Of a stretch of DNA of 459 nucleotides, positions 1 to 459 are shown one piece after another. This DNA is from Escherichia coli. Lineage in GTDB: Bacteria > Pseudomonadota > Gammaproteobacteria > Enterobacterales > Enterobacteriaceae. Location: NCBI RefSeq assembly GCF_003334315.1, contig NZ_QOWR01000133.1; one strand, given 5' to 3'. Numbering within the stretch: the first letter of the stretch is position 1; each line of letters opens with the position of its first letter. The position numbers were made by a program, and so were the translations under genes. The notes under the pieces were generated by a model. That model worked only from the letters and a program-made list of their open reading frames with translations, was not told the origin of the DNA and did no database searches.

Positions 1-459
1 TCTACTGTTGACTATTTGTGCCGTTATTTCTGGTGCAGAAGGCTGGGAAGATATAGAGGATTTTGGGGAAACACATCTCGATTTTTTAAAACAATATGGT
101 GATTTTGAAAATGGTATTCCTGTTCACGATACCATCGCCAGAGTTGTATCCTGTATCAGTCCTTCAAAATTTCACGAGTGCTTTATTAACTGGATGCGAG
201 ATTGCCATACTTCAGATGATAAAGACGTCATCGCAATTGATGGAAAAACACTCCGGCATTCTTATGACAAGAGTCGCCGCAAGGGAGCGATTCATGTCAT
301 TAGTGCGTTCTCAACAATGCACAGTCTGGTCATCGGACAGATCAGGACGGATGAGAAATCCAATGAGATTACAGCTATCCCTGAACTTCTTAACATGCTG
401 GATATTAAAGGAAAAATCATCACAACTGATGCGATGGGTTGCCAGAAAGATATTGCAGA
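1..459 (+). CDS. ISAs1-family (H-repeat-associated) DDE transposase, internal fragment; 5' and 3' ends lie outside the window. Reading frame 2: first complete codon at nt 2-4, last complete codon at nt 455-457.
   Basis: Seen in sequence: frame 2 is open for all 152 codons, whereas + frame 1 hits TGA at nt 100-102 and + frame 3 hits TGA at nt 9-11. The translation contains motifs I recognise from H-repeat/ISAs1 transposases: [27 protein letters not shown] and [11 protein letters not shown] in the N-terminal transposase-associated region, IAIDGKTLR (first catalytic Asp, codon nt 239-241) and ITTDAMGCQ (second catalytic Asp, codon nt 428-430). Spacing between the two Asp residues is 63 aa, consistent with DDE_Tnp_1-type (IS4-like fold) transposases. 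Recognition is from memory of the E. coli H-repeat proteins (YhhI-like); no database search was run. Gene symbol left blank because several near-identical paralogs exist and the copy cannot be assigned from 152 aa. Confidence 0.93.
1..459 (+). mobile_element. Interior of an ISAs1-family insertion sequence (H-repeat / ISEc1-like element); the element termini and terminal inverted repeats are not in the window.
   Basis: Inference from the CDS call: ISAs1-family elements are about 1.2-1.3 kb and consist essentially of a single transposase ORF, so a window wholly inside the ORF is wholly inside the element. Window GC is 189/459 = 41.2% (counted by hand), below the roughly 50% typical of E. coli-like chromosomes, consistent with a horizontally acquired element. 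Confidence 0.85.

Follow-up and report, generated by a model that had tools for sequence, protein, structure and literature searches.

The question raised by this stretch of Escherichia coli DNA, 459 nucleotides long and hereafter called the window, is whether a low-GC fragment of a repeated mobile element can be traced to one chromosomal locus, and whether that locus adjoins accessory cargo. An exact count gave 189 G+C out of 459 (41.18%, or 41.2% when rounded), the value that the initial annotation had reached by hand and had called low for an enterobacterial core genome. In strain 720632 (region L002), which carries a 100% identical copy, the core genes beside the element (yafV, ivy, fadE, lpcA and yafJ) are 50-57% GC, and the mean of the 30-kb region is 53%. 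G+C content spans 35% to 52% across 100-nt windows of the 459-nt stretch. The whole 1.29-kb element is 40% GC in strain 720632, and the low GC of the window is therefore an element-wide property rather than a local fluctuation. Windows of 459 nt at or below 41.2% GC occur in just three patches of the L002 region:

L002:6049-7101, low-GC patch (at or below 41%) in the tssB-hcp intergenic spacer
L002, low-GC patch covering Rhs tip to H-repeat
L002:22455-23658, low-GC patch at the dinJ-yafQ toxin-antitoxin pair and the yafL upstream region

In an island-rich comparison sample of about 91 kb (mean 51%, SD 8.6%), 16% of windows were at or below this GC content, and the value is unremarkable among horizontally acquired E. 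coli DNA. Low GC is common to all H-repeat copies and so is not a local effect; it would reflect a foreign origin of the H-repeat.

Frame +2 (window nt 2-457) runs through its 152 codons without a stop, and stops are numerous in each of the other five. The program-made list of open reading frames held short ORFs only, since the real one extends beyond the window at either end. When we searched Rfam with either strand of the window at a permissive E-value, no RNA family was returned and a non-coding RNA reading was dropped. The 152-aa translation matched the NCBIfam profile NF033564 'ISAs1 family transposase' with 226 bits (E = 6e-67), well above the curated cut-off of 70 bits, residues 1-152 aligning with profile positions 2-153 of 314; the H-repeat/ISAs1 label given initially is thus borne out. 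Genomes with an identical copy carry a gene of 1137 nt that encodes 378 aa and is annotated 'ISAs1 family transposase', and its full-length protein scored 407 bits over profile positions 1-314 of 314. The window corresponds to nt 87-545 of this 1137-nt coding sequence (L002 and E. coli C, region L001). On these matches, its 459 nt come from the interior of the only gene of the H-repeat, the E. coli member of the ISAs1 insertion sequence family. The features in the window are as follows, with Pfam domain limits taken from the full-length protein of an identical copy:

2..457, + strand: ORF segment, codons 30-181 of the 378-codon transposase gene; frame +2 open, NF033564 match
1 and 458-459: partial codons, nt 1 being the last base of codon 29 and nt 458-459 starting codon 182
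2..196, + strand: PF13808 DDE_Tnp_1-associated domain (N-terminal), residues 30-94 in the window (Pfam, full protein residues 8-94, E = 1.6e-33)
218..457, + strand: first third of the PF01609 DDE transposase domain, residues 102-181 (Pfam, full protein residues 102-343, E = 6.2e-28)
239..241, + strand: codon GAT, Asp109 (VIAIDGKTL), presumed first catalytic Asp of the DDE triad, intact
428..430, + strand: codon GAT, Asp172 (IITTDAMGC), presumed second catalytic Asp, intact

The third presumed triad residue, Glu306, lies outside the window. A PDB sequence search with the transposase at E <= 1 gave no match, and conservation across distant relatives was used for the catalytic residues. D109, D172 and E306 were invariant in an alignment of eight sequences, made up of the window's full protein and seven ISAs1-family transposases at 27-50% identity from five phyla (Vibrio, Klebsiella, Acaryochloris, Piscirickettsia, Bacillus, Sinorhizobium and Streptomyces plasmids). 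Their catalytic role is presumed from this conservation and from the DDE family pattern.

We then asked which copy of the repeated element the window represents. Some match to it was found in 5311 of 5426 complete E. coli genomes, at a median of five places per genome and up to 11. The window is 100% identical to a gene common to hundreds of these genomes, and 848 records matched at 99% identity or more. In all nine exact matches that were inspected, the transposase gene lies just upstream of yafV, at a single chromosomal place. The place is the yafV-proximal end of an island bounded by tRNA-Asp (aspV) on one side and the core gene yafV on the other; the transposase gene ends 40 nt before the end of yafV, is convergent with yafV and co-oriented with rhs, and is followed past yafV by ivy, fadE and lpcA. 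The nine belong to about 850 near-identical records, and for the remainder the assignment relies on the agreement of counts. A query running from the window into yafV was covered to at least 80% in 2809 of the 5426 genomes and reached at least 99% identity in 886 records, and a second query, which started in the Rhs tip and crossed the small ORF into the window and H-repeat, was covered to at least 80% in 896 genomes, 810 of them at 99% identity or more. The agreement of 848, 886 and 810 indicates that nearly all carriers of the window's allele have one arrangement. Places without the yafV junction reached at most 97.4% identity in a spread sample of rows, and the K-12 paralogs differ from the window at 15 (yhhI/RhsB), 16 (ydcC/RhsE) and 22 and 23 (ybfD and ybfL/RhsC) of 459 positions. 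We infer that the window's allele is locus-specific and belongs to the H-repeat copy beside yafV, and the neighbourhood described below is likewise that of identical copies. A fragment of 459 nt can in this way be assigned to one chromosomal locus through allele-specific differences among the copies of a repeated element.

The window itself contains neither flanking DNA nor Rhs parts, and the neighbourhood was tested in genomes with an identical copy. In eight of the nine inspected genomes, the gene order was Rhs gene, small low-GC ORF, H-repeat and yafV, the Rhs gene being annotated as an intact RHS core protein in three, as a pseudogene in four (frameshifted or IS-interrupted) and as VgrG in one. 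In the ninth, E. coli C, an IS1 has removed all that stood between a yafT-like gene and the small ORF, including the Rhs gene; the yafT-like gene lies downstream of tRNA-Asp and adjoins a truncated ykfM. Two genomes were fetched with 15-kb flanks, and one of them, strain 720632, has vgrG, hcp and a type VI secretion system (T6SS) cluster further upstream, in the order tagH, tssG, tssF, tssE, tssC, tssB, hcp, vgrG, a 1414-aa RHS core protein, a 130-aa ORF, the H-repeat and yafV. The Rhs assignment was confirmed by NF041261 RHS_core (2505 bits) and seven YD-repeat stretches, and VgrG by TIGR03361 (630 bits). An H-repeat at the distal end of rhs and co-oriented with it is found both at the yafV locus and at RhsB, RhsC and RhsE of K-12. 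Within the Rhs protein of strain 720632, DPLGL (of the PxxxxDPxGL motif) lies at residue 1257, with an AT-rich tip behind it and then the 130-aa ORF:

L002:13643-14111, Rhs C-terminal tip, 153 aa after the DPLGL cleavage motif
L002:14092-14484, small ORF, 130 aa, 33% GC, immunity candidate

The composite GC pattern of this region agrees with the mosaic that an Rhs element should show:

T6SS genes, 49-57%
Rhs core, 63%
Rhs tip, 44%
Small ORF, 33%
H-repeat, 40%
yafV, 55%
fadE, 57%

These observations bear directly on what had been proposed for the surroundings of the window. An accessory or toxin-type neighbourhood had been judged plausible, and an Rhs gene with a small ORF indeed stands upstream in eight of nine identical-copy genomes, with a T6SS in one of the two wide fetches. 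The suggestion of an Rhs or an O-antigen setting held for Rhs and failed for O-antigen: the 15-kb flanks of the copies in E. coli C and strain 720632 contain no annotated glycosyltransferase, wzx or wzy gene, and an O-antigen or polysaccharide neighbourhood for the window's allele was rejected. The initial annotation had also described the picture that would speak against it, namely core DNA on either side, a simple IS insertion that had duplicated its target site, and an absence of cargo. What we found is core on the yafV side only, no duplication and adjoining toxin-type cargo. A low-GC ISAs1 fragment in E. coli is thus a fair predictor of an adjoining Rhs toxin region.

The Rhs tip of strain 720632 gave a weak Pfam match to YkuD (L,D-transpeptidase; E = 2.7e-4) and holds H-x18-T-M-G-C, a partial likeness to the Tlde1 effector motif HXX14-17(S/T)HGCh (PMC9638812). 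A PDB sequence search with the tip for a Tlde1-like relative gave no significant match. The 130-aa ORF had no family match, and its N-terminus is lipoprotein-like (...VIGC). By the weak Pfam match and the partial motif, the tip and the 130-aa ORF fit a periplasm-acting peptidoglycan toxin with a lipoprotein immunity partner. The biological interest would lie in this pair, both members of which are outside the window.

Several further features of the island were noted. The small ORF is split by frameshifts in several genomes (L003, L004 and L021). The island has repeatedly been struck by other insertion sequences, with an IS1A truncation in E. coli C (L001:13414-14111) and apparently in a BL21 derivative too, and with ISCro1 (IS66 family), which in one strain separates the small ORF from the H-repeat and in another lies within rhs (L003:3983-6598; L004:2854-5469). 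In addition, a second, divergent ISAs1-family element, a pseudogene with about 67% nucleotide identity to the H-repeat, lies directly upstream of the H-repeat at two places:

L008:8594-9218, divergent ISAs1-family element, yncI at RhsE of K-12
L011:5685-6811, divergent ISAs1-family element at the yafV locus of strain A2

This element appears to accompany a ydcD-type Rhs tip, and strain A2 carries such a tip together with the yncI-like pseudogene upstream of its H-repeat.

To establish how the yafV copy is built, we compared it with the canonical K-12 copies, which are 1291 bp long with a single 1137-nt ORF and end in an imperfect terminal inverted repeat, CAGGGAAAGATCA on the left and ATCTTGCCCTG on the right (reverse complement CAGGGCAAGATTA). 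These terminal repeats agree at 11 of 14 positions (CAGGGAAAGATCAT vs CAGGGCAAGATTAC). The yafV copy spans L002:14771-16062, is 1292 bp long and has one 1137-nt ORF, in keeping with the single ORF and the size of about 1.2-1.5 kb that mark ISAs1-family elements. Its left end is intact and begins at L002:14771, whereas its right end, at L002:16062, reads GTAATACCCCG in place of the canonical ATCTTGCCCTG, with the last 11 bp decayed. The reverse complement of this right end, CGGGGTATTACTAC, matches the left end at 8 of 14 positions and has lost the terminal CAGGG, which makes it a recognisable decayed repeat and not a functional-looking one. At the same locus, strains A2 and JCM 5491 have the right end GTCTTACCCCG, and a terminal CCCTG is absent from every copy seen there. 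The right repeat is, on these alignments, degenerate in every lineage seen at the yafV locus, and more so in the lineage of the window. Truncation of the element at the stop codon on its right was considered and rejected, since other lineages show a full-length yet decayed repeat.

The ISAs1 family makes target-site duplications of 8-10 bp. No direct repeat was found around the yafV copy, nor around the RhsB and RhsE copies of K-12. Two short solo fragments of H-repeat left ends lie 175 and about 250 nt upstream of the yafV copy, one of them about 81% identical over 78 nt and the other starting with exact CAGGGAAAGATCAC:

L002:14518-14595, solo left-end fragment between the small ORF and the full element
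L002:14596-14660, solo left-end fragment between the small ORF and the full element

Both look like remnants, left either by earlier copies or by nested insertions, and in this they resemble the tandem defective copies at RhsC of K-12 (ybfQ, ybfL, ybfD). Since these upstream fragments are left ends of other H-repeats, the original target may have been overwritten.

The yafV junction itself proved to be widely kept. In K-12 only the last ~280 nt of the element survive, as pseudogene yafF, with an identical yafV junction, and in JCM 5491 a short ISAs1 remnant abuts yafV despite an unrelated island at the site. The H-repeat stub is thus a right border that unrelated cargo has in common. The island of this strain (L010:1-8800) contains genes for a type I secretion ATPase and adaptor, a 1275-aa Ig-like domain protein, regulators, an IS630 fragment and an ICE-family gene. 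Outside the species, Escherichia sp. E1V33 has the left ~520 nt of an H-repeat, 89% identical, joined to the conserved right junction at yafV (L019:10381-10919); this copy has an internal deletion of about 750 nt and occupies the same yafV-ivy-fadE locus in a non-coli Escherichia. A scan for the junction sequence in one genome per species matched one non-coli genome, the exact-match pattern being so blunt that absence elsewhere means little. The junction is kept in K-12, JCM 5491 and E1V33, and the insertion is therefore old and inherited in place. A fixed old junction, a decayed repeat and a missing duplication together argue that the yafV copy is probably immobile. By these comparisons it would be an old, vertically inherited resident that marks the border of the island, with no recent insertion.

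Strict vertical descent is nevertheless insufficient for the element itself, since the H-repeat at the yafV locus diverges by 4.1% (dS ~0.13) between two E. coli lineages (L002:14771-16062 vs L011:6771-8061), whereas yafV, ivy, fadE and lpcA diverge by 0-1.6% between the same two. This difference suggests that dispersed copies have undergone gene conversion, or that the island end was exchanged, a different Rhs tip coming with it. Between H-repeat copies dN/dS is 0.08-0.19, with synonymous changes far outnumbering non-synonymous ones. The ORF shows by this measure a history of purifying selection, which could date to a mobile past or be renewed by gene conversion. The intact ORF could conceivably also encode a transposase that is active in trans, on other copies. 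About half of the genomes (2617 of 5426) are without a full-length copy at the yafV site, and the H-repeat ORF of strain A2 has an internal stop; both count as evidence against a host function. The likeliest present role for the host would be passive, in that dispersed homology may promote rearrangement or exchange of neighbouring segments, a part already proposed for H-repeats in O-antigen clusters.

We weighed three other readings against this evidence. The window might come from another H-repeat copy (RhsB/yhhI, RhsE/ydcC, RhsC/ybfD-ybfL, an O-antigen cluster or a plasmid), to which the yafV/T6SS neighbourhood would not apply. Genomes with several and up to 11 matching places give room for this, as do paralogs that are 95-97% identical and open to gene conversion, which the raised divergence of the yafV copy suggests as well, and a few plasmid copies (23 places, with one E. 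coli plasmid protein 97.9% identical). It is distinctly unlikely, however, given that 15-23 of 459 positions separate the window from the K-12 paralogs, that the exact matches inspected were at yafV in nine of nine cases with places lacking the junction no higher than 97.4% in the spread sample, and that a search of the plasmid collection gave no protein above 97.9% identity. Every other K-12 copy also ends an Rhs element, so that the conclusion of an Rhs-linked accessory region would survive even here. That the host has domesticated this border transposase for a use of its own (for example, exchange or rearrangement of Rhs toxin tips, or regulation of the island) rather than for transposition appears very unlikely. 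Fixation at the site predates the divergence of E. coli from a sister Escherichia lineage, the 378-codon ORF is intact in nine of nine exact-allele genomes although the terminal repeat has decayed, dN/dS is 0.08-0.19, and the gene is always downstream of rhs and co-oriented with it. Losses of the kind seen here, with 2617 of 5426 genomes lacking a full-length copy at the site, a stub in K-12 and JCM 5491, an internal deletion in E1V33 and an internal stop in A2, are nonetheless unexpected under host selection, and a low dN/dS may be a legacy of the mobile past or be upheld by conversion from other copies.

An active autonomous insertion sequence, recently inserted into core DNA and unrelated to its neighbours, would account for the full-length transposase ORF with its presumed DDE triad intact, for a dN/dS of about 0.1 between copies and for the conserved core of normal GC on the yafV-ivy-fadE side. 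We regard it as extremely unlikely. The yafV junction is identical in 2809 genomes and is also present in the K-12 and JCM 5491 remnants and in another Escherichia species; the element has no target-site duplication and a degenerate right repeat without terminal CCCTG; its opposite side is Rhs/T6SS cargo rather than core; and no pair of genomes with an empty and a filled site and a duplication was found among the samples examined. Transposition of H-rpt has moreover 'not been observed' according to the literature (PMC3032704). Taken together, our results make it very probable that the window is a piece of the H-repeat transposase gene from an old, probably immobile copy that lies beside yafV and ends an Rhs/T6SS island. 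It can be set aside in a genome scan as a known mobile-element gene, with little significance beyond annotation.

Both the mobile-element gene and its context are known and have already been described. The association of H-repeats with Rhs elements is textbook knowledge, and ISAs1 has been shown to transpose. The Hill-laboratory papers on Rhs and H-rpt (J Bacteriol 1993 and 1998) reportedly describe an 'RhsG' and a 'min 5' H-rpt remnant. We considered and rejected an equation of the 'RhsG' of EHEC papers with the yafV locus, the naming scheme being a different one. RefSeq labels related H-repeat copies as ISEc1- or ISEc5-like. In E. coli W, Rhs region 1 has been placed at b0215-b0221 (PMC3032704), a site that matches the yafV locus. 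An H-repeat remnant at the junction of a recombinant Salmonella O-antigen cluster has been proposed as a mediator of cluster recombination (PMC3715488).

Among individual elements, H-rptB (yhhI) and H-rptE (ydcC) of K-12 share with the yafV copy an architecture of ~1291 bp, a 1137-nt/378-aa ORF, the left terminus CAGGGAAAGATCA and a distal, co-oriented position in Rhs, at 96.3-96.5% nucleotide identity over about 1280 bp. The yafV copy differs from them in being a distinct allele (15-16 of 459 positions) at another site, with the right end GTAATACCCCG in contrast to their ATCTTGCCCTG. The yafF pseudogene of K-12 (b4503) has the same locus and right junction, and K-12 is 100% identical to the reference copy in the final ~280 nt of the element and the first part of the flank. 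Upstream of this point nothing of the island end is left in K-12, neither the whole stretch that the window represents nor rhs and the T6SS cluster, which rules out the yafV locus of K-12 as the source of the window. More distantly, ISAs1 of Aeromonas salmonicida, ISKpn31, ISRm21 and ISPa60 belong to the same family, whose NF033564 profile the H-repeat protein covers end to end, and resemble the H-repeat in their two-domain layout and in the invariant D, D and E, although protein identity is merely 27-50% and those elements reside on plasmids of many genera. At the level of the whole island, the yafV locus shares with the E. coli Rhs elements (RhsA-E of K-12) a GC-rich YD-repeat core, an AT-rich tip, a small ORF and an H-repeat. 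Unlike rhs at the K-12 loci that were fetched, which does not stand behind vgrG and a T6SS, the Rhs gene of the yafV locus follows vgrG and a complete T6SS cluster.
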